29,166 nucleotides of DNA, taken from Ardenticatenia bacterium (GTDB lineage Bacteria > Chloroflexota > Anaerolineae > Aggregatilineales > Aggregatilineaceae). The notes under the pieces were generated by a model. It was given only the letters and a program-made list of their open reading frames with translations, ran no database searches and was not told where the DNA came from. Position numbers and translations under genes: made by a program. This document shows, piece after piece, positions 2,162 through 16,440 of this stretch (position 1 is the first letter of the stretch; every line of letters starts with the position of its first letter). The DNA lies in contig JALSSH010000604.1 in NCBI GenBank assembly GCA_026984385.1, positions 1 through 29,166 of the forward strand. Direction: 5' to 3'.

Positions 2162-2203
2162 GTGCGCATTCAATCACCCGAACCCGATTGCCTCACAGGG
2201 GTA

Positions 2204-3004
2204 ATGTCTATGCTGCCTCATCTGACGTTTGTTCACATCACGGACTCGCATATGACTTCGGACGGCGCACCTTTACATGGCGTGGCTTCTGCGCCCAATT
2301 TGCGCCGTTTAGTGCGCTTGATCAATGATTTTCCCACACCGCCGGACTTCGTGCTGCACACCGGCGACGTTTCCCATGACCGAGGCGCGCCCTCCTATGA
2401 GCAAGCTCAGCCCATTCTCGCCGAGCTGCGCACGCCGATCTACTACGTGGCGGGCAACCACGACGCCCCGGCGCTGTTGCGCAAGTTCTTAGGCGCGCCG
2501 CCTGCCGCAAACGGCGACCCGACCGCTCCGCTGGACTATGTGTTTGAGGTGAAGGGGGAGCGCTTTTTGGTGTTGGACGGTTGCTGGGAGCACGTGCGTG
2601 ACCCGCTCGGCTGGCTCAGCGAGGAACAACTCGCGCGGGTGCGCGACGAAGCCGCTCCACAAGGGCCACCGTTGACGATTGTTTTGCACTATCCGCCGTT
2701 CAAGATGGGGTCGCCCTGGCTGGACGACAATATGATCCTAACCAACGGCGCGGCCCTGCACGAAGCGCTTTTGCCCGCGCGGGGACGTTTGCGCGCGGTG
2801 CTTTGCGGCCATTTGCACCGCAGCAGCCAAATCGTGCGCGATGGGATTACGTACATCTCCGCGCCCAGCGTGGCCCCTGCTTACACCTGGCAGCCCTGGG
2901 ACGCCGAGCCGCGTCCCGATCTGGAAGTGCCGCCCGCTTATAACCTGGTGCACTACTTCACGGATCGCGTGGTTGTGCAACAGTACCATTTTGCGCGTGT
3001 GTAA
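2204..3004 (+). CDS. Calcineurin-like metallophosphoesterase, CpdA/Icc-like (possible 3',5'-cyclic nucleotide phosphodiesterase)
   Basis: Ordered motifs HITDSH, HTGDVS, GNHD, LHYPP, CGHLH; start set at ATG 2204 after AGGGG (ATG 2210 also possible). Confidence 0.85.
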   Translation: MSMLPHLTFVHITDSHMTSDGAPLHGVASAPNLRRLVRLINDFPTPPDFVLHTGDVSHDRGAPSYEQAQPILAELRTPIYYVAGNHDAPALLRKFLGAPPAANGDPTAPLDYVFEVKGERFLVLDGCWEHVRDPLGWLSEEQLARVRDEAAPQGPPLTIVLHYPPFKMGSPWLDDNMILTNGAALHEALLPARGRLRAVLCGHLHRSSQIVRDGITYISAPSVAPAYTWQPWDAEPRPDLEVPPAYNLVHYFTDRVVVQQYHFARV

Positions 3005-3012
3005 GGGAAAAG

Positions 3013-3040
3013 AAAAAGCCCGCGCGCTGCGCAGGCTCGG
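3013..3040 (-). terminator. Rho-independent terminator downstream of tRNA-Glu
   Basis: Minus strand AGCC-T-GCGC-agc-GCGC-G-GGCT stem (one G-U pair) followed by TTTTCTTTTCCC. Confidence 0.7.
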
Positions 3041-3043
3041 CTG

Positions 3044-3116
3044 TGCCCCTATGGGGATTCGAACCCCAGTCTTCACCTTGAAAGGGTGGCATCCTAGTCC
3101 TCTAGACGATAGGGGC
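3044..3116 (-). tRNA. tRNA-Glu (TTC), CCA not encoded
   Basis: Acceptor stem GCCCCTA/TAGGGGC, anticodon loop CT-TTC-AA, T-loop GTTCGAATC, 73 nt to discriminator A. Confidence 0.96.
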
Positions 3117-3129
3117 GTGACATGCGCTC

Positions 3130-3158
3130 ATTCTACCAGTGCATCAGAGAGGCGTCAA
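3130..3158 (-). promoter_or_regulatory. Sigma70-type promoter of tRNA-Glu
   Basis: TTGACG (3158-3153), 17-nt spacer, TAGAAT (3135-3130), 13 nt upstream of the tRNA 5' end. Confidence 0.85.
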
Positions 3159-3352: not shown

Positions 3353-4312
3353 CTACGCACTCGTCAGTTGGCCTAGCTCCATTTCCAGCAAGCGCTCGGC
3401 GTCCACGCCCACGCAAATATTGACCGGCGGACGTCCTTCCCAGGGGAGCGCTCCCTCGCGCGCCACGTTCCCGACCACCCCGGGCCACGTTTTGCCGCGC
3501 CCAAGTCCGGCCAGCTCCACGCGGATCGGCCAGCGTTCCACCTGGAAAAGCGATGGGTCGAGCACATACGCAATGGCCGAGGAGTCGTGCACGTAAATTC
3601 CTTGCAAATGGGGGTAATGTCGCTCGAAGAATGCGCGATAGAAGCGCACGATGCGCGCGATATGTTGCGCCAGCGGATTTTGCGCCTGCTCATAGCGCGC
3701 CAGGTGTTCGGGCGTCATATTGACCTTGTGTGTCACGTCTAGCCCCACCATCGTCACCTGCCAATCTGCCGCAAAAACGGCTTCCGCCGCTTCCGGATCG
3801 TTCCAGATGTTGGCTTCGGCGGTGGGCGTAGCGTTGCCCGCTTCGTAGGCGTTGCCGCCCATCAACACCACTTCGCGCACGTTTTGGGCGATGCGCGGCT
3901 CCAGGTGCAGCGCCAGCGCGATATTGGTCAGTGGCCCGATGGGCACAAGCGTAATTTCGCCCGGGGCGGCCATGACCTGCTCGATGATGAACTCAGCGGC
4001 GCTTTGCGCGATGGCGTGCGTGCTCGGCGGCGGCAACTCGACGTTGCCCTGGCCGTCCGCGCCGTGTACGAAATCCGCCGGCCCGTTGAAGCGCCCCGCG
4101 ATGGGTGCGTGTGCGCCCTGGGCCACCGGAATATCGCTGCGCCCCGCGATCTCTAACAGCCGCAGCGCGTTGGTCGTCGCCAGCTCCACCGCCACGTTGC
4201 CGAAAATGGTTGTCAGCCCGAGCACGTCAAGTTCCGGCGAGCGCAAGGCGAAAAAGATCGCCATCGTGTCGTCTACGCCCGGGTCGGTATCAATGATGAT
4301 TTTGCGCGCCAT
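3353..4312 (-). CDS. Nucleoside hydrolase (IUNH/Rih family)
   Basis: N-terminal DTDPGVDD (DxDxxxDD), HGADG, IGPLTN, MGG, AEANIWNDPEA, GLDVT, HD motif. Confidence 0.95.
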   Translation of the reverse strand: MARKIIIDTDPGVDDTMAIFFALRSPELDVLGLTTIFGNVAVELATTNALRLLEIAGRSDIPVAQGAHAPIAGRFNGPADFVHGADGQGNVELPPPSTHAIAQSAAEFIIEQVMAAPGEITLVPIGPLTNIALALHLEPRIAQNVREVVLMGGNAYEAGNATPTAEANIWNDPEAAEAVFAADWQVTMVGLDVTHKVNMTPEHLARYEQAQNPLAQHIARIVRFYRAFFERHYPHLQGIYVHDSSAIAYVLDPSLFQVERWPIRVELAGLGRGKTWPGVVGNVAREGALPWEGRPPVNICVGVDAERLLEMELGQLTSA

Positions 4313-4326
4313 AGCGTCTCCTGATC

Positions 4327-5235
4327 CTATTGGTGCAGCGCAACGGCAATTTGCGCGGCCACGTGTGCGTTGTTCACCAGCGCGGCGATGTTCGCTTGTT
4401 TGGAGCGCCCGTTGGTCAGCTCCAACACTTTTGCCAGCACAAAGGGCGTCACGGCTTTGCCGTGTATGCCGGCCTCGTCGGCCAAGCGCGTTGCTTCTTG
4501 GATGGCGGCTTCGGCCTCGTCTTGTGGCAAGGCCTCGGCTTCCGGCACGGGCACGGTGACCAGCACCGCATGCCCCAACCCCAACTTGTCCCGCGCAGCG
4601 ATGATCGCGGCGGCTTCTTGCGGGCTATCCACGCGCTGGTCAATCGGCAGCCCGCTAGAGCGGCTGTAAAAAGCGGGCAGCGTGTCCGTCCCGTAACCCA
4701 AGATCGGCACGCCTTGCGTTTCCAAAACCTCCAACGTGCGTGGCAAGTCCAAGATGGACTTAGCCCCCGCGCAAACCACCGCAATCGGCGTGCGGCCCAG
4801 CTCGATCAAGTCGGCGGAAACGTCCTCCGGATGCCCGCGATGCACCCCGCCGATGCCGCCCGTCGCAAAAACGCGAATGCCCGCCATGTGCGCCACGATC
4901 ATCGTGCCCGCGACGGTGGTCGCGCCATGTTGACGCAAGCCGACCACAATCGGCAGATCGCGCCGCGAGCATTTGCGCACGCCCTGTTGCCCCAACTCGG
5001 CCAGTCGCTCGATCTCTTCTCGGCCCAGGCCCACCTTGATCCGTCCGTCCAAGACGGCGATAGTGGCGGGGATGGCGCCCTCCTCGCGGATCGCTTGTTC
5101 CATCGCCAGCGCGGTTTCCACGTTGGCCGGATAGGGGAAGCCGTGTGTGATCAAGGTGGATTCCAGCGCTACCACCGGCGAGCCGCTCTCTAGAGCAGCG
5201 GCGATCTCCTCCGAATACGTCAATACGTTGTTCAT
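4327..5235 (-). CDS. psuG: Pseudouridine-5'-phosphate glycosidase
   Basis: VALESTLITHG, GATTVA, FATGGIGGVHRG, DVSADLIELGRT, AGAKSILD, NIAALVNNA. Confidence 0.95.
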   Translation of the reverse strand: MNNVLTYSEEIAAALESGSPVVALESTLITHGFPYPANVETALAMEQAIREEGAIPATIAVLDGRIKVGLGREEIERLAELGQQGVRKCSRRDLPIVVGLRQHGATTVAGTMIVAHMAGIRVFATGGIGGVHRGHPEDVSADLIELGRTPIAVVCAGAKSILDLPRTLEVLETQGVPILGYGTDTLPAFYSRSSGLPIDQRVDSPQEAAAIIAARDKLGLGHAVLVTVPVPEAEALPQDEAEAAIQEATRLADEAGIHGKAVTPFVLAKVLELTNGRSKQANIAALVNNAHVAAQIAVALHQ

Positions 5236-5639
5236 CCGGCTACAACCTTTACCTGCACGCGCCGCTTACGCGGTCCATCGAATTCGTAGAACATGACGCT
5301 TTGCGAGCCGCCCAGAAGCAGCTCCCCGTTCTCGATCACCAGCAGCACGCTGTGGCCGATCAGCGCCGCTTTGATGTGTCCGGCGGCGTCGGCGGGTGTG
5401 TCGTACTGGTGTTTGAAGTCCACGCGCGTCGGCACAAGCCGCCGCACATCTGCGATGATGTCCTGCGGGGTGGTGGGGTCCATCATCGAGTTGACCGTCA
5501 CGGCGGCGGTCGTGTGCGGCACGATCACCGCACACAAGCCGGATTGCACGCCGCTTTCTGCGACGGCTGCGCGCACCTGCGCGGTGATATCCACCAAGGC
5601 ATCACCGTTGGGCGTTTCTAGCGTGATTGTCTTCAGCAT
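5232..5639 (-). CDS. YjbQ/UPF0047 family protein
   Basis: 135 aa; PHTTAAVTVN...DP, DAAGHIKAALIG, LLLGGSQSVMFYEFDGPRKR; overlaps psuG start (ATGA) and kinase stop. Confidence 0.9.
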   Translation of the reverse strand: MLKTITLETPNGDALVDITAQVRAAVAESGVQSGLCAVIVPHTTAAVTVNSMMDPTTPQDIIADVRRLVPTRVDFKHQYDTPADAAGHIKAALIGHSVLLVIENGELLLGGSQSVMFYEFDGPRKRRVQVKVVAG

Positions 5640-6589
5640 GAAAAATCCACCTCGTCGCCTGCCGAACGCAACAGCGCCAGCGTCTCTTCACACGTGGGCG
5701 CGGTCACACCACCGCCCACACGTTGCACAACCAGTGCGCCCGCTGCGTTTGCCAGCTTGGCGCTATCTTGCAAAGAAAGCCCGTTGAGCACTCCGGCCAT
5801 GAAAACCGCGTCGTAGGTGTCGCCCGCGCCCACCGAGTCCACCACACGCTCAACCGGATAGGGCGGAATATCCAGCCACCAGTCCGAAGTTATGACCATG
5901 CTCCCTTTGGCCGCGCGTTTGGCGACCACAAACTTCGGCCCCATTACCAGCAAACTGGCAAAAGCATTGGGTCCCTCTTTGCCATCTGCGGCATAGGGAG
6001 CTTCATCATCAGCGAGGAACAATAAATGCGTGCGTTCCAAAGCCCAGCGCACCTGCTTGGGGTCGGCGTAGCGCAGGAACGGCCCCGCGTCCAAATAGAT
6101 CGGCGTGCCTGCTTTGTGCGCGTGCTCAATGGCGCGGGTCGTCATCTTCACGACGCGCTTTTCGGTGAGCGTGTAGCCCTCGATAAAGAGCGCGTCCGCT
6201 TTCTCGATAACCTCGTCCAACCCCTCCGGATATTCCGCCTCTGGTCCTTCGCCGTAGTGTCCGACGAAAACGTGTTTGTCTTCCTCTTTGTCCGTCAACA
6301 CAAGTACCAACGTCGTTTCGGAGTTCGGAGTGGTTAGCACGTGATGGGTATCTACCCCCCGTTCGTTGAGTGTTCCGAGCACCATTTGCCCAAAGACATC
6401 ATCGCCGATCACGCCGGACATCGAGACCTCAACCCCAAAATTCAGCGCCGCCAGGGCAAAGTTCGCCATGCCGCCGGGTTGGACATTGCGCCGCTCGGCG
6501 TTTTGGTGTCGGGCTGCGCGCAAGGGCAGCTTCACCGGCATGATAATATCCAGCACCACATCTCCTACGGTCACAATACGCTTGCTCAT
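5633..6589 (-). CDS. PfkB/ribokinase-family carbohydrate or nucleoside kinase
   Basis: MSKRIVTVGDVVLD, PGGMAN, DSVGAGD signature; start set at ATG 6589 after AGGAG rather than the 7237 start in the ORF track. Confidence 0.92.
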   Translation of the reverse strand: MSKRIVTVGDVVLDIIMPVKLPLRAARHQNAERRNVQPGGMANFALAALNFGVEVSMSGVIGDDVFGQMVLGTLNERGVDTHHVLTTPNSETTLVLVLTDKEEDKHVFVGHYGEGPEAEYPEGLDEVIEKADALFIEGYTLTEKRVVKMTTRAIEHAHKAGTPIYLDAGPFLRYADPKQVRWALERTHLLFLADDEAPYAADGKEGPNAFASLLVMGPKFVVAKRAAKGSMVITSDWWLDIPPYPVERVVDSVGAGDTYDAVFMAGVLNGLSLQDSAKLANAAGALVVQRVGGGVTAPTCEETLALLRSAGDEVDFSC

Positions 6590-6594
6590 CACTG

Positions 6595-7614
6595 CTACTC
6601 CTGGCGCGCCAAGCGCGCGCTCGCCAACTTGTGTACCCCTTCGGCAATCTCGCGCACGCCGTATTCGGCAAAGACCGGATCGGCGTCCAACACGGCTACC
6701 AACGCGGGATCGAAGGCGTCGAACCCGCGATACGCGCCCGCGATGGCACACGCAATCGCGCCGACCGTGTCCGCATCGCCGGAAAGGTTGGCGGCGTAGA
6801 TCGCGGTTTGTCTGGGGTCGCCTTCGGCCATCACCAGCACACCGAAGGCCGCGCCGAGCGTTTCCGGCACGCTGAGCGACGCCCCGACCACGTCGTAAAT
6901 TTCCACCAAGCGCGTAAAGGCGTCTCCCGAGCCACGCGCAATATGCACGCCCATCTCGATCCGTCGCGCCACCGAAGGGCCTAACCAGCGCCGCCCGTGT
7001 TGACGTCCCAACTCCGCGCCCATCATGCCCGCGCTGACCACCGCGTCGAGCGTGGCGTTTTCGGTCATCGCAACGGCAATCGCCGCCGCTACCGCCGCCG
7101 CGCCGCTGATCGCCACGTTGGTATTGTGTGTGGGTGTGCAAACCGTCACCGCGTCGCGCACCGCACCGAGCGGGTCGCCCGGGTGGAGCAAGCCCACCGG
7201 TGAGATACGCATCGGCGCGCCGTTGGTGTCGCCCCAAAGCCCCGTCGTGTGGGGGTCTTCGCCGCGTTTGAGCGCTTGCACGCCGCGCCGTGTGCTCGGC
7301 CCCACGTAGGGGGACGTTTCTCCGCCCACACGATCATACCAGGTGATGATCGCCTTGACCGCGCCTTCGAGCGTCACTCCGCCGTCGCGGATAAATTGCT
7401 GCGCCAGCGAAAAGGCTTGCTCGCTGTCGTCCGTGATGCGTCCGGCAGGTAGCCCTGCGTGCACCGGATGGTCATCCGGCGCGGGCAGGAATTTGTCGAT
7501 CCAACCGCCGTAGGCTTCCCATGTTTGGTAGGGATCAAAATAGGCGGGCATTCCCCATGCGTCGCCCAAGGCTTGCCCGTACAGCCCGCCCAGAATTTTT
7601 TCTTGCAGGGACAC
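6595..7614 (-). CDS. ADP-ribosylglycohydrolase (ARH/DraG/YegU) family protein
   Basis: GQALGDAWG, ITDDSEQA, NGAPMRISP, GDADTVGAIA metal-binding motifs; GTG start after AAGGAGG. Confidence 0.92.
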   Translation of the reverse strand: MSLQEKILGGLYGQALGDAWGMPAYFDPYQTWEAYGGWIDKFLPAPDDHPVHAGLPAGRITDDSEQAFSLAQQFIRDGGVTLEGAVKAIITWYDRVGGETSPYVGPSTRRGVQALKRGEDPHTTGLWGDTNGAPMRISPVGLLHPGDPLGAVRDAVTVCTPTHNTNVAISGAAAVAAAIAVAMTENATLDAVVSAGMMGAELGRQHGRRWLGPSVARRIEMGVHIARGSGDAFTRLVEIYDVVGASLSVPETLGAAFGVLVMAEGDPRQTAIYAANLSGDADTVGAIACAIAGAYRGFDAFDPALVAVLDADPVFAEYGVREIAEGVHKLASARLARQE

Positions 7615-7681
7615 GTGCCCCTCCTTCGTTCGGCATCAGAATAAACGACGTGGACAGGTGTTATGGCCTGTCTGGCATAAA

Positions 7682-7706
7682 CGGGGGCGTATGTCCTACG
7701 CCCCCG
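7682..7706. terminator. Perfect 10-bp hairpin between the permease and ARH genes (terminator or REP-like)
   Basis: CGGGGGCGTA-tgtcc-TACGCCCCCG; followed by TTTAT on the minus strand. Confidence 0.55.
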
Positions 7707-7725
7707 CTCAACTCATCACTGCCGC

Positions 7726-9192
7726 TCACGCCTGTGCAGGCGCGGGCTGTCGGTGGTTTCGCTGGAGTAAGTGTAACCCTCCCAGCGCTAACCAGATCGC
7801 AATAGAAACGGCCAGCCCGATCAAAAAGCCGAGCGTCACCGAGTGGTCGGCCAGCGACGTTGTTTCCACAAAGAGCATAAAGACCAGCCCTAAATAGAGC
7901 CACAGCGAAACCACCATCGCGCCCGCGCTGGCGAGCGGGTGGCGTCCGATACGCTCCACATCCAACATAAAGGGCAGATTCACGCCGATAAGGAACAACG
8001 AACCGGCCATGATCAGCCCCCCATAGAGAAACACGGTTGACGTGCTCCAGTCGGTCCCCAGGCTGAGAAAGCCCTTCGGCGCGGAAAACATACTCACACC
8101 GACCAATACGCCAAAAACGGCCACCATCGCCATGAACATATGCAGCACGCTCAAGCGCTGAATGGCGCTCCAGAAGGTCGCGTCAAAGCCCTCGCCTTCC
8201 GCCGAGCGCAACGTGCGAACCCGCACGGCAAGCTGATTTTGCAGCGCGTAGATTACCAGCGCCATCACTGTTGCCATGTAGGGCAACACTTGCGGCAACT
8301 GCGAGGGGATCTCCAGCGACCCCACGCGCACCGAAAGCGCGTCGAACGAGCCGAAGATGACCGAAGCCAACCCCGTCCCGATGGGGTGTCCTCCGCCCAG
8401 GTAGGGCGTCGCCAAGGCGATAAAGCCGCGTCCGGCGGTCATGTTCGCCTGGAAAAAGCCCAGGTAGCCCATGCTCATATGCACGCCGCCCAGCGCGGCC
8501 AGCACGCCGCTGAGCACCAACGCCAGATATTTGATGCGCGTCACGCGGATACCTACCGAGGCCGCCGCTTCCGGGTTTTCACCCACCGCGCGCAGATGGA
8601 TACCGGTCGGCGTGCGGTAGAGGAAGTACCACACCACCGCCACCGACGCCAACGCGATCCACGTCATCACGCTTTGGTTATCCAGCACTTGGTAGAAGAA
8701 AGAAACTACCGGAATATCGTTGAGAAACTTGGGCAGGTGGATAAAGGGCATCTTCATGCTCTCTAGGCCGCCCTGGGTGTTGCCACGGTCGCCGGTCAGC
8801 TCGTACATGATGGCGATGGTGGCCGATTGCCCCAGGAAGTTGATGGCAATGCCCGAAAGGATCAAGTCGGCTTTGAGCTTGAGGTGGAAAAAGCCGAGTA
8901 TCCACGCGGTGAGCACTCCCATCACCAAGCCCATCCCAAGCCCCAGCCAGGGGCCGACCATCCTTCCTGTATCGGCCCCCCACCAAGTTTGGGCGTAGGC
9001 GCTGAAGACCACGCCGGTAAAGGCCGAGATGAGCATGATCCCTTCTAGCCCGATGTTGATCACGCCCGCGCGGTCGGAGATCAGCGCGCCGAGTGACGGC
9101 AACAGGATCGGCGTGGTCACGCGCAACACAGAAGCGAGAAACGCCGCGCTGAAGATACCTTCCAAAACGTTCTGAAACAGTGAGTTATCCAT
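7726..9192 (-). CDS. Nucleoside/sugar ABC transporter permease (BPD_transp_2, CUT2 type) with about 170 aa C-terminal membrane extension
   Basis: VTTPILLPSLGALISDRAGVINIGLEG, GIHLRAVGENPEAAASVGI, TAGRGFIALA, PQVLPY. Confidence 0.9.
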   Translation of the reverse strand: MDNSLFQNVLEGIFSAAFLASVLRVTTPILLPSLGALISDRAGVINIGLEGIMLISAFTGVVFSAYAQTWWGADTGRMVGPWLGLGMGLVMGVLTAWILGFFHLKLKADLILSGIAINFLGQSATIAIMYELTGDRGNTQGGLESMKMPFIHLPKFLNDIPVVSFFYQVLDNQSVMTWIALASVAVVWYFLYRTPTGIHLRAVGENPEAAASVGIRVTRIKYLALVLSGVLAALGGVHMSMGYLGFFQANMTAGRGFIALATPYLGGGHPIGTGLASVIFGSFDALSVRVGSLEIPSQLPQVLPYMATVMALVIYALQNQLAVRVRTLRSAEGEGFDATFWSAIQRLSVLHMFMAMVAVFGVLVGVSMFSAPKGFLSLGTDWSTSTVFLYGGLIMAGSLFLIGVNLPFMLDVERIGRHPLASAGAMVVSLWLYLGLVFMLFVETTSLADHSVTLGFLIGLAVSIAIWLALGGLHLLQRNHRQPAPAQA

Positions 9193-11320
9193 GCGCGCCC
9201 TCCTCGGCAGGGGTCAGCGAGCCGTTGCCGTTTTGGCCTTCTCCCATATCCAATTCGAGCGTCCCCCGTCGCCGGATGCGGCGGCGGCGGACGAACGTCA
9301 CCAGCGCTTCCGCCGTGATGAGCAAGATCACCACTGCTTGGATGATGCGCACGACCTCCGAGCTGATATTGGCGTCGCGCTCCATCACTTGCGCGCCGGT
9401 ACGCAGATAGGCGTAGAGCAGCCCCGTAAAGGGCACAACCAGCGGGTTATTGCGTGCCAGCAGCGCCACCACCACGCCCTCAAAAGCCAGCCCAACGGAG
9501 ATATTCAGGATCAAGCGGCGGTGCATCCCCATTGCCAGGTGCGCGCCCGCCAAACCGGCCACCGCGCCGCTGATCGCCATGACCAACATAATCGTGCGCT
9601 TGGTGTTCACCCCGCCGTAGTTGGCGAACTTGATGTTTGCGCCGATCATGCGGATTTCGTAGCCGATGGGCGTGCGGCGGATCATCAGCCAGGTGAGCAC
9701 CACCATCGCGATCACGATATAGACGGCGATGGTGACTTGGTCGCCGGTCACGTCCACGATCGGGGCCAGCAGGCCGTTTTCAGGAATCCAGTCCGAATAG
9801 GTGTAGCCCGCGTCCGGCGGTTTGAGCTGGAAGGTGAGCACCATCTCGTAGAAACGCTGCGCGACCATGTTCAGCATCAAGGTTGAAACAAGCTCGTCTG
9901 CGCCCAAATACGCTTTCAGCGCGCCAGGGAGCAGTCCCCAAAGGAAGCCTGCCGTCGCCGCCGAAAGTAGCGCGATGGGCACGAGCAGATAGGACGGCAG
10001 ATTGCCGAAAGTCAGCCCGACCACGCCGGAGACCAACGCGCCGAAATAGAGCTGCCCTTCCGCGCCCAAGCTGAACTGGCGCGCGCGGAAGACCATCGCG
10101 ATGGAAAGCCCCAACAAGATCAGCGTCAGCGCGTCCCGAATCCAAACCACCCAGCGGTTCAGACGGCTCAACGGCCCAAGCAAGAAAGCGTCATAGGCTT
10201 TGTTGGTGGCCTTGATCGTCTCCTTGATGCGCACGCTGGTATCCAGGGGGTTGGGGCGCACATAAACCGTGTAAACTCCCTCTGCGGGCAACGTTACATC
10301 TTGCAAGATCGCGTCGCGCGTGCTTTTCAGCTCGCGGGAGAACTGCTCCACTTGCGCATCGGTAGCGTTGTCGTTGAAGGCGATCTTTTCGCCGTCTGGC
10401 CCGTAGAGCGTCACTTGCAAGTCCATCCCCACTTCGGGGCGTGAAACGTAAGCCAGGATCGTCACCACATCGCCCTCACGTCCGGCGAAGTGATATTCGG
10501 CCTCACGCAAGGGATTGGAGACTTTCTCCTTGTTGAAGATCGCGCCAACCGGTTTGCTGTTGTAAGCAAAGTCCACCAGCGGGGGCGCATCAGAAACCAG
10601 GGCGACGGTGACTTCTGCGTTGACCTCTTCCACGCCTTCGGCAGCTTGCGCCGTGATGGTGTAAAAGCCGTCTTCGGGCAAGGTGAAGTCTTGGATGACG
10701 TAGCCGTTTTTCTTGGTCAGATAGCGACGGAAAGCGCGCGTTTGGGTTTTGGTGGCTTGCGTGCCCTCGCCAAGCACGTTACCGTTCTCGTCGCGCAACG
10801 TCAAGGCCAACGGCAGCTCTACGTCTTGGTCCACATAGGCCAACACCGAAACGACATCGCCCGCCCGCCCGGCGAACGTGTAGCTGACCGCGTCCTGCGG
10901 TGAGCTGAACTCGGTGGCGATCTTTTCACCGTAATTGATGGTAGTCAGTGCTTCGGCATCCGAAACAACTTTGATGCGGAACTCGCCGCGAATTAAGCTA
11001 TCAGCAGCATCTAGACTGAAAAAAGCCGTCATCAGATAGCCGAAAATAAGCGCGACGACCACCGTTAACAACACGCGCGCCGCGTCCCAGCGCAGCTCCC
11101 AAATGAGCAAAAAGACGCTGAATCCCGCCAGGGCGTTGATCAACAAAACGCTGAGCGGCCCGGGCGTGGCTTGGATGGCGTCCTTCACTTCGGAAAGAGA
11201 CATGCCCAAGCCGAGGCCATAAGCCTTATAGCTCAAAAACAACAGCGTGAGCACAGCCATTACGAAGCCGAAGAGAGGGAGCGTCAGTCGGTTACCTTTT
11301 TGCGCGGTTTTGGGTTTCAT
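9185..11320 (-). CDS. Nucleoside/sugar ABC transporter permease with two inserted PPC-like extracellular domains
   Basis: C-terminal core FSLGAEGQLYFG, ELVSTLMLN, GYEIRMIGAN, LAFEGVVVALLARNNP; N-terminal part has a tandem YxFAGRxGDVV...TLPxxGxYT repeat. Confidence 0.88.
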   Translation of the reverse strand: MKPKTAQKGNRLTLPLFGFVMAVLTLLFLSYKAYGLGLGMSLSEVKDAIQATPGPLSVLLINALAGFSVFLLIWELRWDAARVLLTVVVALIFGYLMTAFFSLDAADSLIRGEFRIKVVSDAEALTTINYGEKIATEFSSPQDAVSYTFAGRAGDVVSVLAYVDQDVELPLALTLRDENGNVLGEGTQATKTQTRAFRRYLTKKNGYVIQDFTLPEDGFYTITAQAAEGVEEVNAEVTVALVSDAPPLVDFAYNSKPVGAIFNKEKVSNPLREAEYHFAGREGDVVTILAYVSRPEVGMDLQVTLYGPDGEKIAFNDNATDAQVEQFSRELKSTRDAILQDVTLPAEGVYTVYVRPNPLDTSVRIKETIKATNKAYDAFLLGPLSRLNRWVVWIRDALTLILLGLSIAMVFRARQFSLGAEGQLYFGALVSGVVGLTFGNLPSYLLVPIALLSAATAGFLWGLLPGALKAYLGADELVSTLMLNMVAQRFYEMVLTFQLKPPDAGYTYSDWIPENGLLAPIVDVTGDQVTIAVYIVIAMVVLTWLMIRRTPIGYEIRMIGANIKFANYGGVNTKRTIMLVMAISGAVAGLAGAHLAMGMHRRLILNISVGLAFEGVVVALLARNNPLVVPFTGLLYAYLRTGAQVMERDANISSEVVRIIQAVVILLITAEALVTFVRRRRIRRRGTLELDMGEGQNGNGSLTPAEEGAHG

Positions 11321-12858
11321 AGGTACTGCTCCATTTCTTCGGGGGGTTGCCGCTCCGCGCCGAGCATATACAACCCCAGCTTATCCTCGGTCAAGTCCGG
11401 CGTGTTGGGGAAGACCGCCACGATCTCGCCTTCATACATCACCATAATCCGATCCGAGAGCTTCATCACCTCTTGCAAGTCCGCCGAGATGAGCAAAATA
11501 GAAAGCCCGCTGGTACGTTGGTCCACAAGTTGCTGGTGGATGTACTCAATCGCGCCAATATCCACACCGCGCGTCGGCTGGGCGGCGATAAGCAAGCGGG
11601 GGGAGGAAGAAAGCTCGCGCGCCACCACCACTTTTTGCATATTGCCGCCGGAAAGGGACCCCACCGGCAAGTTCGGCCCGGGCGCCAAAATATCAAAGCG
11701 CTCGATCAGTTCCTCACCGTGTTGGCGGATGGTGCGCAAGTCCAGCAGTCCGTGCCGCGTAAAGGGCGGGCGATAGTAGCGATCTACGATCAGGTTGTCG
11801 CCGATGGTCGCGTCTACGGCGACGCCGTTGGTCAGGCGATCCTCGGGGATATGCGCGACATGCGCTTCTCGCACTTTACGCGGCCCAGACCCCAACACCT
11901 GTGCGCCATCTACATACGCTTCTCCACCGGAAGCAGGGCGCAATCCGGTGAGCACTTCGACCAACTCGGTTTGGCCGTTACCTTCTACGCCCGCAATGCC
12001 CAGGATTTCACCCTCGTAGGTGGTAAAGGTGGCGTTGTGGAGCAAAGTCCGTCCGGTCTCGTTGATATAGGTTAGCCCGCGCACCTCCAAAACCGGCTTG
12101 CCGCGCTGGACGGGGGGCTTGTCCACCTGCATAAAGACCTCACGCCCCACCATCATCCGCGCAAGCTCGGCCTCGTTCGTTTCCGAGGTGTTGACCGTGC
12201 CCACCGTGCGCGCGTCGCGCATCACGGTGACGCGGTCGGAAATTTCCATGACCTCGCGCAGCTTGTGGGTGATGAAGATGACCGTTTTTCCTTCGTCCAC
12301 CAAGTTTCGAATGGCGGTGAAGAGGTCTTTGGTTTCGCGTGGGGTCAGCACAGCGGTTGGCTCGTCCAAGATCAGGATTTCCGCGCCGCGATAGAGCGCC
12401 TTGAGGATTTCTACACGCTGGCGCATTCCCACCGGCACGGTATCTACGCGCGCAGTTGGCTCAATATGCAGCCCGTACATTTCGGAAAGTTTGCGCGTGT
12501 CTTCGATAATCGAGGGCACGTCAACGGAAAGCCCGCGCGTAGTTTCCATGCCCAACGCGATATTTTGGGCGATGGAGAACGAGTCCACCAACATAAAGTT
12601 TTGGTGAACCATGCCGATCCCCAGGTCAATGGCTACCTGCGGGTTACCGATCTCAACCCGCTGGCCGCGCAGCCAAATCTCACCCTCGGTAGGCTGTTCT
12701 AGCCCGTAGAGGATTTTCATCAAGGTGGACTTGCCCGCGCCGTTTTCCCCGACCAGCGCGTGGATTTCCCCCTTTTCGACAGAAAGGTGCACATGGTCGT
12801 TGGCGAGCACACCGTTGGGATAAATTTTGACAATATCTCTTGCTTCTATGATCGTCAT
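11317..12858 (-). CDS. ABC transporter ATP-binding protein with two NBDs (CUT2/nucleoside type)
   Basis: GENGAGKST, MVHQNF, ILDEPT, GVEGNGQ, LSGGNMQK, AAQPTRG. Confidence 0.96.
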   Translation of the reverse strand: MTIIEARDIVKIYPNGVLANDHVHLSVEKGEIHALVGENGAGKSTLMKILYGLEQPTEGEIWLRGQRVEIGNPQVAIDLGIGMVHQNFMLVDSFSIAQNIALGMETTRGLSVDVPSIIEDTRKLSEMYGLHIEPTARVDTVPVGMRQRVEILKALYRGAEILILDEPTAVLTPRETKDLFTAIRNLVDEGKTVIFITHKLREVMEISDRVTVMRDARTVGTVNTSETNEAELARMMVGREVFMQVDKPPVQRGKPVLEVRGLTYINETGRTLLHNATFTTYEGEILGIAGVEGNGQTELVEVLTGLRPASGGEAYVDGAQVLGSGPRKVREAHVAHIPEDRLTNGVAVDATIGDNLIVDRYYRPPFTRHGLLDLRTIRQHGEELIERFDILAPGPNLPVGSLSGGNMQKVVVARELSSSPRLLIAAQPTRGVDIGAIEYIHQQLVDQRTSGLSILLISADLQEVMKLSDRIMVMYEGEIVAVFPNTPDLTEDKLGLYMLGAERQPPEEMEQYL

Positions 12859-13106
12859 CTACTACCCCCTAGATTAGGATGTCGGGGCACGGGAAGCGCT
12901 TCAGCCCGTCTGACCGTTTGACCGGTGCATAAGCCAGCACAGCGAAGATGTGCCGAGCGTAGCGTGGGCTGGTGATGGGCTGAGCGGGTGCTGAGTGGGA
13001 AAAGGACGATGCAACAGCACAAAGGGGAGAGGCGGCATACCAGAGAGAGATGGAAAGAGCCATGTTGGTTTTGTGTTCCGCGAACGCACCCGCAAACTAA
13101 TAGCAA

Positions 13107-13133
13107 ACTGGGGCGAGCATAGCTCACCCCAGT
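13107..13133 (-). terminator. Hairpin after the substrate-binding protein gene (weak terminator or mRNA-stability element)
   Basis: Minus strand ACTGGGG-T-GAGC-tat-GCTC-G-CCCCAGT, continuous with one G-U pair only on this strand, followed by TTGCTATTAGTTT. Confidence 0.6.
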
Positions 13134-13154
13134 CAATACGTGATTGTGCCCGAC

Positions 13155-14330
13155 TTACTGCGCCAGGTACTCCGCAGCGTCGAAGTCTACTTCCGGCATC
13201 TCGTCGCAAGCCATGCCGACCTCGGCCAAGCTATAGCCCAAGTCCAAGCGCGCTTCGAAGACGGTGTTCACGGTCACTTCGCCAGCTTCCAGCTTCTCGG
13301 TGGTCGCGTCCATCAAGTCCAGGATGTTTTCCGGCGTGTTTTCGTAGTAAATATCGTTCATCGCCAAGCCAACGCCGCCCTTGCTCACGCCCAAAACTTC
13401 GGCCTGGCCGTAAGGCAGTTCGCCCTTCAGGTGCAAGTCAATGGCGCGGAAGAGGGAGTTGTCCACGTTCTTCATCATGCTGGTGAGAATGTGCTGGGCT
13501 TGCTCGGGGTCGGTGTCCGCGATGATGGTGGCCTGGTCGGAGTCCACGCCGATCGCGTAGTGGCCCTGCTCGTAGGCTGCCTCAAACACGCCCACACCCG
13601 TGCCACCGGCCACCTGGAAGACGATGTCCGCTTTTTGTTCGTACATCGCCAGGGTGATTTCTTTGCCTTTGGCGGGGTCGTTCCAACCGCCGGCATACTG
13701 GACGATCACGTCCACGTCGGGGTTAACCAGGCAAGCGCCTTGTTCATAGCCAACGATGAAGTCGTTGATGACCGGAATATCTTGCCCACCGATCACGCCG
13801 ATGATCGCGTCGTCATTGACGCCTTCGATGCCGCTGGTGGTGATAGCTGCCGCATACACGCCCGCCAGGAACGAACCTTCGTTCTGGGCGTATTGCACGG
13901 AGTAGACGTTGGTGCAGCCCTCGACGCAATATTCGGGGTCGTCGTAGGGAACGGAGTCATCGTAGAAAATGAAATACTTGTCCGGATACAGATGTACGCG
14001 CTTGGCGAGGAATTCGCCCATCTGGAACGTGCCGACGATCAACACGTCGTAGTTGTCCACGTCGGCCATCGCGTCGCTCAGGCCACTTTCCCAGTTGGCA
14101 GGGTCAATGCCCAGCTCAATGGTGTTGACCTCGACGTTGTAGCCCTCGTCGATCAGGCGATCCATGCCGCGCTGCGCGGAATCAAAGAAAGACTTGTCGC
14201 CCAAAACGCCGTTGATCACCAATGTGATGCGCAAGGGTTGGTCTTGAGCCGACGTGCGGGAGGGGACGGCAACCGCCGCCACCACCATAACCATAACGAT
14301 GGCTAGTGCAAGGAACTTTGAACGGGTCAT
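13155..14330 (-). CDS. BMP/PnrA-family ABC substrate-binding protein (nucleoside-binding type)
   Basis: LGDKSFFDSA, NEGSFLAG, GVIGGQDIPVINDFIVGY, DIVFQVAGGTGVGVFEAA, IGVDSDQ; Sec signal peptide ending TSA-QD. Confidence 0.93.
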   Translation of the reverse strand: MTRSKFLALAIVMVMVVAAVAVPSRTSAQDQPLRITLVINGVLGDKSFFDSAQRGMDRLIDEGYNVEVNTIELGIDPANWESGLSDAMADVDNYDVLIVGTFQMGEFLAKRVHLYPDKYFIFYDDSVPYDDPEYCVEGCTNVYSVQYAQNEGSFLAGVYAAAITTSGIEGVNDDAIIGVIGGQDIPVINDFIVGYEQGACLVNPDVDVIVQYAGGWNDPAKGKEITLAMYEQKADIVFQVAGGTGVGVFEAAYEQGHYAIGVDSDQATIIADTDPEQAQHILTSMMKNVDNSLFRAIDLHLKGELPYGQAEVLGVSKGGVGLAMNDIYYENTPENILDLMDATTEKLEAGEVTVNTVFEARLDLGYSLAEVGMACDEMPEVDFDAAEYLAQ

Positions 14331-14385
14331 GTTTCTACACTCCTAAGCGAAATCTCCAAATATATAGGGATATGGTGCTGTTCAC

Positions 14386-14414
14386 ACTATAACCGACACG
14401 GTTAATTGCGTCAA
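14386..14414 (-). promoter_or_regulatory. Sigma70-type promoter of the ABC/nucleoside cluster with an inverted repeat in its spacer
   Basis: TTGACG (14414-14409), 17-nt spacer, TATAGT (14391-14386); TAACCG-aca-CGGTTA at 14390-14404. Confidence 0.8.
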
Positions 14415-14476
14415 GTTTCGCGCGCATGGGCACAGGGCTTAGCAACATTTGATTTTCGCCCTTAACTTCATCTCTA

Positions 14477-14519
14477 TGGTATAACACACTTGACCGAAAT
14501 ACTCATATCGAATTATAGG
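14477..14519 (+). promoter_or_regulatory. Promoter candidates upstream of the PrsW fusion gene
   Basis: Extended -10 TGgTATAAC (14477-14485); TTGACC (14490-14495), 18-nt spacer, TATAGG (14514-14519). Confidence 0.5.
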
Positions 14520-14520
14520 G

Positions 14521-14579
14521 AGAAAGGCGCATTTCTTCCTCACCTGAAGGCGAGGAGCTTCTGCGCCAACGTTCTATGA
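14521..14579 (+). mobile_element. Orphan IS200/IS605 (TnpB-associated) right-end-like hairpin, no transposase
   Basis: GGCGCA...TTCCTC-A-CC-tgaa-GG-C-GAGGAG...TGCGCC interrupted hairpin; pattern resembles IS605-group right ends as I recall them, not database-verified. Confidence 0.5.
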
Positions 14580-14628
14580 CCTCAAAAGTAGCGCACGTCC
14601 TTGACCGGCACACATAACGGAAAGTGCC

Positions 14629-16440
14629 ATGAGCACAGTTGCTTTAGTCGGCTATTTTGTGGCGCTGGCATTGCCCGCGCTGACTATTTATCTTTTTGTG
14701 ACGTTGGACGTTTTTGGCACAGGCCGCCCCAGCACCGTCTTTTTGTGTGCGGGGTGGGGCGCGCTGGGCGCGTTTTTCCTCGCTTGGGGTTTTAACAGCG
14801 CTATCTCAGCGCGCGGCGTTTCTTATACACTGCTGACTTCGGCGGTCGCACCGGTAGGCGAGGAACTGCTCAAGGCGTTGGTACTCATCTACCTGATCCG
14901 CAGCCCCCGTTTTCGTTACATTGTGGACGGCGCGGTATACGGCATTGCCGTAGGGTTGGGCTTTGCGCTTTCGGAAAATCTGTTTATTTACTTGCCCCAA
15001 GCAGGAGACGCTGTGTTGGGGGTGGCGTTGAGCCGTGCGCTTTCCACTTCGCTTATGCACGCTACCGCCAGCGGTCTAGTGGGCATCTCACTGGGTCGCC
15101 TGCGGCGCACCGATAGCGCACGCCGCAAGATGTTCCCGCTGATCGGCATTGGCTTGGCGATCTTGCTACACGCCACTTATAACAACCTGGCCGCACACTT
15201 GGAGGGCGTGCCATTGTTGTTTGTGGCGATGGGGGTGGGCGTCGGTGGTGGCTTGGTGATCGCGTGGGAGATTGTGCAAGGGCTGACCGACGAAAAACGC
15301 CGCTTCACCGAAACGCTCAGCCACGACGTGGACGTTTCCGAAGGGGAACGCGAAGCCGTCCAACGTCTGGGAGATGTCGGCATTGAGCACGTTTTCCGTG
15401 AGCTACGCGATTATTTCGGCGACGAGAACATCGCCCTCATTCGTCGTTTGCTTTCCATTCAGGCCAATATCGGCATTTTGCGCAACAATTTACAAGGGCC
15501 AGCCAGCGAAAGGTTGCGCCGCGCCTGGGAAGAAGAGATCGAGGCTTATCAGGAGGAGATGGAGGAAGTGCGTCGCCAATTAGGGCGCTCGGTGTTGCTC
15601 TTCGTGCAGCGTGTCTTTCCCACCAACGATGAGGCCCTTCAAGAAGTGCTCAACGAGGAGCTGGCGCGTTTTGACCCCACCTTTGTCCACCGCTTTGATA
15701 TGTTCATGCGCATCTCCGGCCTGGCGGAAACTTTCACACCGGAGCAACTTACCGCGATGGCCGAACGGCTGAGCCAAATCGATATTTTCCGCGATGTGTC
15801 GTTGGCAAACTTGGAAAACCTAAGCCGTGCGATCAAGGTGCAAGAATTTGAGGACGGAGAGGTGCTTTTTAACGCGGGCGATGAGGGAAACGCGATGTAT
15901 TTGGTGGAAGAGGGGCAGATCGCCATTTACGTTCCCAGCGATGGCGACGAAAAGCTCTTGCGCACCTTCCAACCGGGGAGCGTGGTGGGCGAATTCTCGC
16001 TATTAGACGGGCGTCCGCGTTCGGCACGCGCCCAAGCTGTTGGGCACGTGCGCACGCTGATGTTGGAACGCCAGGTCTTCACCATGTTTATCCAAAGCCG
16101 CCCGTTGGTGGTTCTGGCAATGTTACGCTATCTGGCGGACAAGGTGCGCTACACCACAAAATCCGTCGAGGCGGCGGTCGAATGGATGACACGCATCAGT
16201 CGCGGCGAATATATGCCGATGGAAGTTGAAGCTCCCGCGCCGCAACCTCAACCCCCCGCGACGGAAGTTATCTTGGAGCCGGACACGCTCTCACCGGAAA
16301 CGCCGGAGCAGGTGAGCGGTGTATTTTCGGCGGTCGCTTCCCGACTTTACGAGCGAGAGCACGCCATGCGTCAACCATTGACGCCACCGACGGACAAGCA
16401 TCCTCAAGATGAGCACACAGAACGAGAGCGCAATGAGTGA
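14629..16440 (+). CDS. PrsW-family intramembrane metalloprotease fused to a cyclic-nucleotide-binding domain
   Basis: PrsW motifs APVGEELLK (EExxK), GFALSEN (FxxxEN), HATASG, LHATYN; C-terminal cNMP domain GDEGNAMYLVEEGQIAIY...GEFSLLDGRPRSA. Confidence 0.9.
   Translation: MSTVALVGYFVALALPALTIYLFVTLDVFGTGRPSTVFLCAGWGALGAFFLAWGFNSAISARGVSYTLLTSAVAPVGEELLKALVLIYLIRSPRFRYIVDGAVYGIAVGLGFALSENLFIYLPQAGDAVLGVALSRALSTSLMHATASGLVGISLGRLRRTDSARRKMFPLIGIGLAILLHATYNNLAAHLEGVPLLFVAMGVGVGGGLVIAWEIVQGLTDEKRRFTETLSHDVDVSEGEREAVQRLGDVGIEHVFRELRDYFGDENIALIRRLLSIQANIGILRNNLQGPASERLRRAWEEEIEAYQEEMEEVRRQLGRSVLLFVQRVFPTNDEALQEVLNEELARFDPTFVHRFDMFMRISGLAETFTPEQLTAMAERLSQIDIFRDVSLANLENLSRAIKVQEFEDGEVLFNAGDEGNAMYLVEEGQIAIYVPSDGDEKLLRTFQPGSVVGEFSLLDGRPRSARAQAVGHVRTLMLERQVFTMFIQSRPLVVLAMLRYLADKVRYTTKSVEAAVEWMTRISRGEYMPMEVEAPAPQPQPPATEVILEPDTLSPETPEQVSGVFSAVASRLYEREHAMRQPLTPPTDKHPQDEHTERERNE

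Follow-up and report, generated by a model that had tools for sequence, protein, structure and literature searches.

A conserved Chloroflexota operon that joins a YegU-like ADP-ribosylglycohydrolase-fold enzyme, a PfkB-family kinase and YjbQ to a BMP-type importer, with a probable role in riboside scavenging

Introduction

Which compounds are taken up and degraded by an operon that sets two orphan protein families beside a nucleoside-type importer, a sugar kinase and a nucleoside hydrolase? The question is raised by a stretch of 29,166 nucleotides (nt) from an Ardenticatenia bacterium (Chloroflexota; Anaerolineae; GenBank assembly GCA_026984385.1, contig JALSSH010000604.1, positions 1 to 29,166), referred to here as the window, in which nine consecutive genes at 3353-14330 appear to form a single operon. 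The orphans are an ADP-ribosylglycohydrolase-fold enzyme (ARH) resembling YegU of Escherichia coli and a YjbQ/UPF0047 protein, members of widespread families for which structures have been solved and no physiological function is known. The operon provides a conserved genetic frame that places both families next to a kinase, a nucleoside importer and a nucleoside hydrolase, and it is probably devoted to the scavenging of ribosides.

The genome to which the contig belongs comprises 3.0 Mb in 626 contigs and is 90% complete, and the close relatives of the contig are metagenome-assembled genomes of Chloroflexota/Anaerolineae throughout. The stretch is present in six public DNA runs from three studies, the source runs being hydrothermal-vent metagenomes, and no RNA run containing it is listed among the public runs.

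Results

Each of the nine open reading frames (ORFs), all of which lie on the minus strand, gives a single strong match in a Pfam scan that covered the operon genes. In order of transcription, and preceded by a candidate promoter, the features are as follows (aa, amino acids).

14386-14414, minus strand: sigma-70-like promoter candidate 5' of the BMP gene (TTGACG-17-TATAGT, 10 of 12 matches; a consensus match only)
13155-14330, minus strand: BMP/PnrA-family substrate-binding lipoprotein, 391 aa (PF02608, 2e-58)
11317-12858, minus strand: ATP-binding cassette (ABC) ATPase with two nucleotide-binding domains, 513 aa (PF00005, ABC_tran, twice)
9185-11320, minus strand: permease 1, 711 aa (BPD_transp_2 at residues 393-668 only)
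7726-9192, minus strand: permease 2, 488 aa (BPD_transp_2 at residues 19-309)
6595-7614, minus strand: YegU-like ARH, 339 aa (PF03747, ADP_ribosyl_GH, 2e-58, 198.8 bits)
5633-6589, minus strand: PfkB-family kinase of a distinct clade, 318 aa (PF00294, 6e-43)
5232-5639, minus strand: YjbQ/UPF0047, 135 aa (PF01894, 7.5e-37, 126.5 bits; TIGR00149, 121.3 bits)
4327-5235, minus strand: PsuG, pseudouridine-5'-phosphate glycosidase, 302 aa (PF04227, Indigoidine_A, 1.4e-125, 418.9 bits)
3353-4312, minus strand: IUNH-family nucleoside N-ribohydrolase, 319 aa (PF01156, IU_nuc_hydro, 8e-97, 324.9 bits)

The frame of the kinase gene extends from 5633 to 7237, with the true start at the ATG at 6589. Neighbouring genes overlap at the ATPase/permease 1 (4 nt), permease 1/permease 2 (8 nt), PfkB/YjbQ (7 nt) and YjbQ/PsuG (4 nt) junctions, and gaps of 5 and 14 nt separate ARH from PfkB and PsuG from IUNH, respectively; longer spacers lie between the BMP and ATPase genes (296 nt) and between permease 2 and ARH (111 nt).

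Conservation of this arrangement was assessed with the ARH as query against one genome per GTDB species, which yielded at least 80 loci with ARH identities of 62-87%, and all nine window proteins were searched against 80 such ARH-anchored Chloroflexota loci. Downstream genes were counted in the 70 loci with at least 4.5 kb of sequence 3' of ARH, where PfkB was found in every case (70/70), IUNH in 68 and YjbQ in 66, all three being present in 65. Upstream genes were counted in the 64 loci with at least 7.5 kb 5' of ARH: the ATPase and both permeases were present in 62 of these and the BMP protein in 57. Since the arrangement recurs in 65 of 70 related loci, it is not the product of chance. One of the loci (L077) sits in a bin labelled 'uncultured Pleurocapsa sp.', which may reflect a mis-binned contig; the others are all from Chloroflexota.

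Spacing between the genes is similarly constrained. The median distance from ARH to PfkB is -1 nt and from PfkB to YjbQ -7 nt, the latter not exceeding 30 nt in 96% of 72 loci, and YjbQ and PsuG, where both are present, overlap by 4 nt in 17 of 17 loci. On the basis of these gap sizes, ARH-PfkB-YjbQ is the tightest unit of the operon. An earlier sequence-only reading of the window had described nine co-oriented genes, several of them translationally coupled, as an operon for riboside uptake and breakdown; the coordinates, the Pfam identities and the overlaps of 4-8 nt agree with that description, and the retention of the importer, IUNH and the other genes together across relatives bears it out, as does the neighbourhood check that it had proposed (the counts given above for PfkB, IUNH, YjbQ and the ABC genes). 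Its suggestion that YjbQ and a small-molecule ARH are tied to nucleoside salvage is likewise upheld by synteny and coupling distances.

A connection between ARH and kinase is evident also from protein fusions. The ARH has 3,236 relatives among 1.84 billion cluster representatives, which were searched exhaustively; the best 150 were examined for fusions. Thirteen of the 150 are long proteins (599-758 aa) that carry the ARH domain at either end; Pfam confirmed a PfkB domain in each of the nine that were scanned, with both domain orders represented, and a PfkB segment was found by profile search in the remaining four. Fusions of ARH and PfkB in the two orders are recorded as P0284, P0298, P0306, P0308, P0325, P0363, P0364, P0398 and P0393. 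Because these Rosetta-stone fusions are independent and occur in both orders, ARH and PfkB are placed in one pathway. The kinases found beside YegU-like ARHs belong to several PfkB clades, with no single lineage. A double ARH protein (P0270) was also observed among the ARH relatives.

The identity of the operon kinase was examined by profile scores and phylogeny. It scores below the cut-off of every NCBIfam equivalog, the best match being IolC_N at 120 bits, and reaches 90.6 bits against the ribokinase model TIGR02152 (cut-off 299.65) and 20-23 bits against the PsuK model NF007355 (cut-off 540). The GG lid and the DTVGAGD catalytic motif are conserved. Identity to YegV is 25%, and maximum-likelihood phylogeny places the operon kinases in a single clade (100/100 support) apart from YegV, RbsK and PsuK, while YegV clusters with the kinase domains of the fusion proteins (97/94). 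Orthology of the operon kinase with YegV is ruled out by the tree. A true RbsK ortholog (46% identity) is encoded on another contig of the same genome (C226). Elsewhere in this genome, contig C74 carries a second IUNH gene followed by two PfkB genes (L112:578-3465); in several relatives, for example at L003, this IUNH2-PfkB-PfkB block lies directly 3' of the operon, from which it is detached in the window's genome.

The ARH itself aligns over its full length with E. coli YegU (36% identity over 309 residues, E 1.8e-59). An AlphaFold2 model (mean pLDDT confidence score 97.4) gives MJ1187, DraG and ARH3 as the top Foldseek matches, and the nearest solved structure is that of the uncharacterised MJ1187 of Methanocaldococcus jannaschii (PDB 1T5J; E 4e-20 by sequence, TM scores of 0.79/0.89 by fold), with which it shares the ARH fold. 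Residues T61, D62, D280, D282 and T283 are invariant in 81 ARH sequences and position 63 is Asp in 80 of the 81; the TDD and DxDT ligands of the two-metal site are also near-invariant among 139 wider representatives. Position 25, by contrast, which is four residues after the Gly of GDAxG in the motif GDAxGxxxE, is Tyr in the window ARH, whereas DraG (E28), MJ1187 and YegU have Glu. None of the 81 orthologs has Glu at this position (Tyr 42, Gln 35, His 4), and the 139 wider representatives include 68 with Glu, 30 with Gln and 15 with Ser there. The equivalent substitution in ARH3, E41A, is a trapping mutant in several PDB entries. Since the residue varies between Glu, Gln and Ser across the wider representatives, position 25 looks, from the alignments, like a site at which YegU-like proteins differ in specificity or mechanism, and not like a mark of decay.

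Proteins of the YjbQ/UPF0047 family have been described as being without clear function (bioRxiv 10.64898/2026.06.26.734693), and their structures come from structural genomics only. Literature searches that covered YegU/YegV, YjbQ, and ARHs in connection with pseudouridine likewise turned up no biochemical assignment. The operon protein passes TIGR00149 (121.3 bits against a cut-off of 67.75), has a mean column identity of 82% and is one of three paralogs in the genome. Searches at 40 YjbQ sites in other Chloroflexota classes found no PfkB, ARH or IUNH gene within 4 kb (0/40), which rules out linkage of YjbQ to PfkB as a general rule; the link is therefore specific to the operon paralog. Only one of these 40 sites has any operon-family neighbour: at L119:3953-5685, in a Chloroflexota genome from outside Anaerolineae, a YjbQ gene (49% identity) is convergent to a 510-aa open frame that contains PsuG. 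Only one PsuG-less locus lacks YjbQ (L034).

Related YjbQ proteins (48-59% identity) were found in three further settings. A YjbQ::PsuG fusion (P0258; L089:1435-2760) is followed by SIS, BtpA and two PfkB genes; a tandem YjbQ-YjbQ pair (L092:8001-8840) lies in a cluster with many SIS and PfkB genes together with major facilitator superfamily (MFS) transporters; and a YjbQ::SIR2 fusion was seen once (L091:402-1460). More distant paralogs (L094:5989-7488, L095:5989-7491 and L097:5950-7329) are fused to an FMN-dependent TIM barrel, which by domain matches is of the FMN_dh type and IDI-2-like, or to a polyprenyl synthetase. About ten fusion-type open frames of 500-540 aa that include YjbQ were noted in the phylum sample. 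As leads, and not as proof, these contexts and fusions suggest that YjbQ proteins act on phosphorylated sugars or diphosphate esters.

The PsuG protein matches PF04227 over the full length of the profile (positions 1-291 of 291) and is 53% identical to E. coli PsuG (E 2e-102). The E. coli residues E31, K93, D149 and K166, which we take to be the catalytic and metal residues, are identical in the window protein by pairwise alignment, and by these sequence measures it is a genuine pseudouridine-5'-phosphate glycosidase. Its place in the operon is an accessory one. The gene was found inside the operon, between YjbQ and IUNH, at 20 of the 80 loci, all of them the closest relatives of the window. 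Across the class, represented by 80 evenly drawn genomes together with the window's own (81), PsuG is encoded in 64 genomes; all 12 of the other Anaerolineae loci sampled have it apart from any ARH operon, and one has it beside PsuK. Because it occurs in only 20 of 80 operons and stands apart from them in all 12 sampled loci, PsuG is regarded as an addition that moved into the operon in one sub-clade, a relocation that probably gave it the use of the common importer and promoter. Three operons with PsuG (L015, L023 and L030) lack YjbQ, and PsuG there directly follows the kinase gene. A change of kinase upon the arrival of PsuG is ruled out, the loci with and without PsuG falling in one kinase clade with 100/100 support.

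A canonical PsuK gene is present in the same genome, split by an assembly gap between C231:2354-3043 (L110) and C69:1-519 (L111); the two parts are 40% identical to residues 1-182 and 29% identical to residues 141-299 of E. coli PsuK, respectively. The genes around it are unrelated to the operon, and an HhH-GPD glycosylase gene comes after it. The kinase that shares the operon with PsuG is not of the PsuK type that marks PsuK/PsuG pairs, and the partner of PsuG is most likely this canonical PsuK.

The final gene product has UriH, RihC and RihA as its best NCBIfam matches, and plant NRH and IU-NH as the closest solved structures. The DxDxxxDD calcium/ribose motif of nucleoside hydrolases is present as DTDPGVDD at residues 8-15.

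At the other end of the operon the importer set of the BMP/PnrA type is complete, comprising the binding protein, the double-domain ATPase and two BPD_transp_2 permeases, in an order that is kept in 57-62 of 64 loci. The nearest solved relatives of the BMP protein are the nucleoside binders TmpC/PnrA (2FQW) and BmpD (6SHU), and the ATPase is below the cut-off for every NCBIfam equivalog. Both permeases are extended. Permease 1 has an N-terminal extension of about 390 aa, in which two repeated hydrophilic domains (residues ~40-390) precede the permease core; its orthologs measure 566-798 aa in all 66 loci, that is, about 200-450 residues beyond the core domain, and fall into a one-domain class of 566-612 aa and a two-domain class of 704-798 aa to which the window protein belongs. 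A faint PPC match was obtained in one ortholog. In permease 2 about 170 further residues, hydrophobic in character, follow BPD_transp_2 at the C terminus; this extension recurs in all 70 orthologs (461-635 aa in total, about 130 residues beyond the core domain).

A strong GC-rich hairpin lies directly 3' of the BMP stop codon, inside the BMP-ATPase spacer (13100-13150, minus strand), and may act as a partial terminator that yields the binding protein in excess over the membrane components. No riboswitch or leader was detected: Rfam at gathering threshold returned only a tRNA-Glu, and the only match in 12800-14700 when scanned by E-value, to a long non-coding RNA, is attributable to chance. The tRNA-Glu(UUC) gene is at 3043-3116 (minus strand), directly downstream of the operon and 3' of IUNH, with its own promoter-like site (3130-3158) and a terminator-like hairpin (3016-3038) in common with a convergent gene at 2162-3004.

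Discussion

With a probability of about 0.65, the operon is read here as a riboside scavenging system composed of a BMP-type importer, IUNH and the ARH-PfkB-YjbQ trio, onto which PsuG has been docked. The importer, with its extended permeases, would take up nucleosides or related ribosides, some of which, the ordinary beta-N-ribosides, would be split by IUNH to base and ribose, while the trio would process a second, non-canonical riboside. What we infer of its substrates, of the order of kinase and ARH and of any part played by YjbQ is that PfkB would phosphorylate the riboside at the 5'-OH, that the YegU-like ARH, with its two-metal site, would then release ribose 5-phosphate, as occurs with PsuK/PsuG, and that YjbQ may act on the kinase product, on the released sugar phosphate or on the aglycone. 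This kinase-first order is slightly preferred, at roughly even odds, because a true RbsK is encoded elsewhere, because the operon kinase does not score as a ribokinase, and because the substrates of known ARHs such as ARH3 and DraG carry a 5''-phosphoester on the ribose undergoing cleavage. A more specific proposal, which is put forward only tentatively, is that the trio constitutes a new route for a non-canonical riboside (for example alpha-linked, with a modified base, or derived from a cofactor), with the ARH as a Glu-less (phospho)riboside glycosidase and YjbQ as a riboside or sugar-phosphate enzyme. If this were true it would provide the first physiological role for UPF0047 and solve the yegU-type genes too.

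The reverse order has also to be weighed, in which the ARH cuts an imported unusual riboside to aglycone and ribose, PfkB serves as ribokinase for the ribose derived from both ARH and IUNH, and YjbQ assists in the handling of ribose, for example by replacing the RbsD pyranase. There is precedent in the RUS loci of Bacteroidetes, which join ribokinases, nucleoside hydrolases and ARHs (bioRxiv 10.1101/574913). The kinase has ribokinase-like motifs (GDxVxD, GG and DTVGAGD), ribokinase is among its better NCBIfam matches, and the variety of PfkB clades that pair with YegU-like ARHs would be expected if any ribokinase were to serve. RbsD/FucU, moreover, was not found in this 90%-complete genome and was found in 20 of the 81 sampled class members, although replacement of RbsD by YjbQ is a weak idea. 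Against hydrolysis as the first step, the genome already has a true RbsK ortholog, on C226, the operon kinase, with 91 bits against a 300-bit ribokinase cut-off, is closest to an IolC-type kinase, and the other YjbQ paralogs in the phylum showed no link to ribose genes at any of 40 sites; such an order is a serious alternative, though the less likely of the two.

The sequence-only reading had gone further and assumed a single PsuK-like operon kinase that feeds ARH, PsuG and IUNH, three glycosidases acting on C-, N- and possibly O-linked ribosides derived from modified RNA or from NAD or ADP-ribose. The adjacency and coupling of the genes in the window stand, and are joined by the YjbQ::PsuG fusion of a relative (P0258) and by the three loci in which PsuG directly follows the kinase. 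The remainder fares poorly. As a PsuK-like partner of PsuG the operon kinase fails, with some 20 bits on a model whose cut-off is 540 and the canonical PsuK encoded on C231/C69; the 60 of 80 operons that have no PsuG all have the same kinase clade; IUNH requires no kinase; and no NAD or ADP-ribose enzyme was recognised in the window by the Pfam scan of the nine operon genes. A common kinase for all three is accordingly unlikely. Least probable of all is a regulatory function in which the ARH, like DraG, ARH1 or ARH3, removes ADP-ribose from proteins and lies beside nucleoside genes only incidentally. The ARH fold and the conserved two-metal ligands are what such a regulator would have, but the catalytic Glu is absent, no ADP-ribosyltransferase family appears among the Pfam matches of the nine operon genes, linkage to transporter and kinase is maintained in 62 to 70 loci with repeated PfkB fusions in addition, and the nearest named relative is YegU, from the transporter-kinase operon yegTUV.

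Several observations weigh against riboside scavenging as proposed here. The presence of Tyr, Gln or His in place of a Glu that is essential in ARH3 could signify altered or weak catalysis, and no YegU-like ARH has an assayed substrate (PMC10819704). The operon kinase could be a second ribokinase that acts after hydrolysis, as proposed for the Bacteroidetes RUS (bioRxiv 10.1101/574913). The spacer between permease 2 and ARH, with a median of 482 nt across the loci, would allow the transporter genes to be transcribed apart from the enzyme genes. The distribution is also narrow: an ARH match at E 1e-40 or better was found in 10 of 80 class genomes, and an ortholog of at least 60% identity in one of 80, the window's own genome being excluded. 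These counts, from genomes drawn evenly across the class, rule out an operon that is universal in Anaerolineae, and since close ARH orthologs are so infrequent among them, the operon is clade-restricted.

For YegU-like ARHs and YjbQ, the value of the locus is that it narrows the search to imported ribosides and makes the two orphan families jointly testable by an enzyme screen. PsuG offers a case of a pathway enzyme that has joined an uptake operon already in place while its own kinase is encoded elsewhere, and hence a caution that neighbours in an operon need not be obligatory partners.

Among known systems, the importers of Treponema pallidum (PnrA/TmpC) and Borrelia burgdorferi (BmpD) have a binding protein of the same family and the same four-gene layout. 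The Chloroflexota importer differs from them in that all orthologs of permease 1 have one or two added hydrophilic domains and all those of permease 2 an added C-terminal membrane segment. With psuK-psuG-psuT of E. coli (yeiC-yeiN-yeiM) the locus shares a clear PsuG ortholog, and the kinase-then-glycosidase logic of that system is the model for the route proposed for the ARH; here, however, psuG is not beside psuK, which is on other contigs, and PsuG is accessory.

The closest parallel is yegTUV of E. coli, which encodes an NHS-type transporter (YegT), an ARH-family protein (YegU) and a PfkB kinase (YegV) under the repressor GgaR/YegW, and which is uncharacterised (PMC10819704). In both cases a nucleoside-type importer, a YegU-like ARH and a PfkB kinase share an operon in which the ARH adjoins the kinase. 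The importer is nevertheless a BMP-type ABC system here and NHS/MFS in yegTUV, the kinase falls outside the YegV clade, the ARH has Tyr at position 25 where YegU has Glu, and YjbQ, IUNH and, in this locus, PsuG are added. The Pfam scan, which covered the nine operon genes, also shows no regulator among them, and next to the operon no gene of the GntR type was recognised. The RUS loci of Bacteroidetes combine ribokinase-family kinases with IUNH and, in some species, ARHs, and draw ribose from varied ribosides (bioRxiv 10.1101/574913). SusC/D outer-membrane uptake, RusT and a dedicated regulator are features of RUS that set it apart, no YjbQ is reported there, and the host phylum differs. The sequence-only reading knew of no description of the full combination. 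The theme of transporter, ARH and PfkB is in fact already known, though unsolved, from yegTUV and RUS, so that the combination is not entirely new; the link to YjbQ and the docked PsuG are additions. What is new at this locus is thus the coupled YjbQ, a kinase clade distinct from YegV, an ARH without the Glu, the extended permeases, and a PsuG docked away from PsuK.

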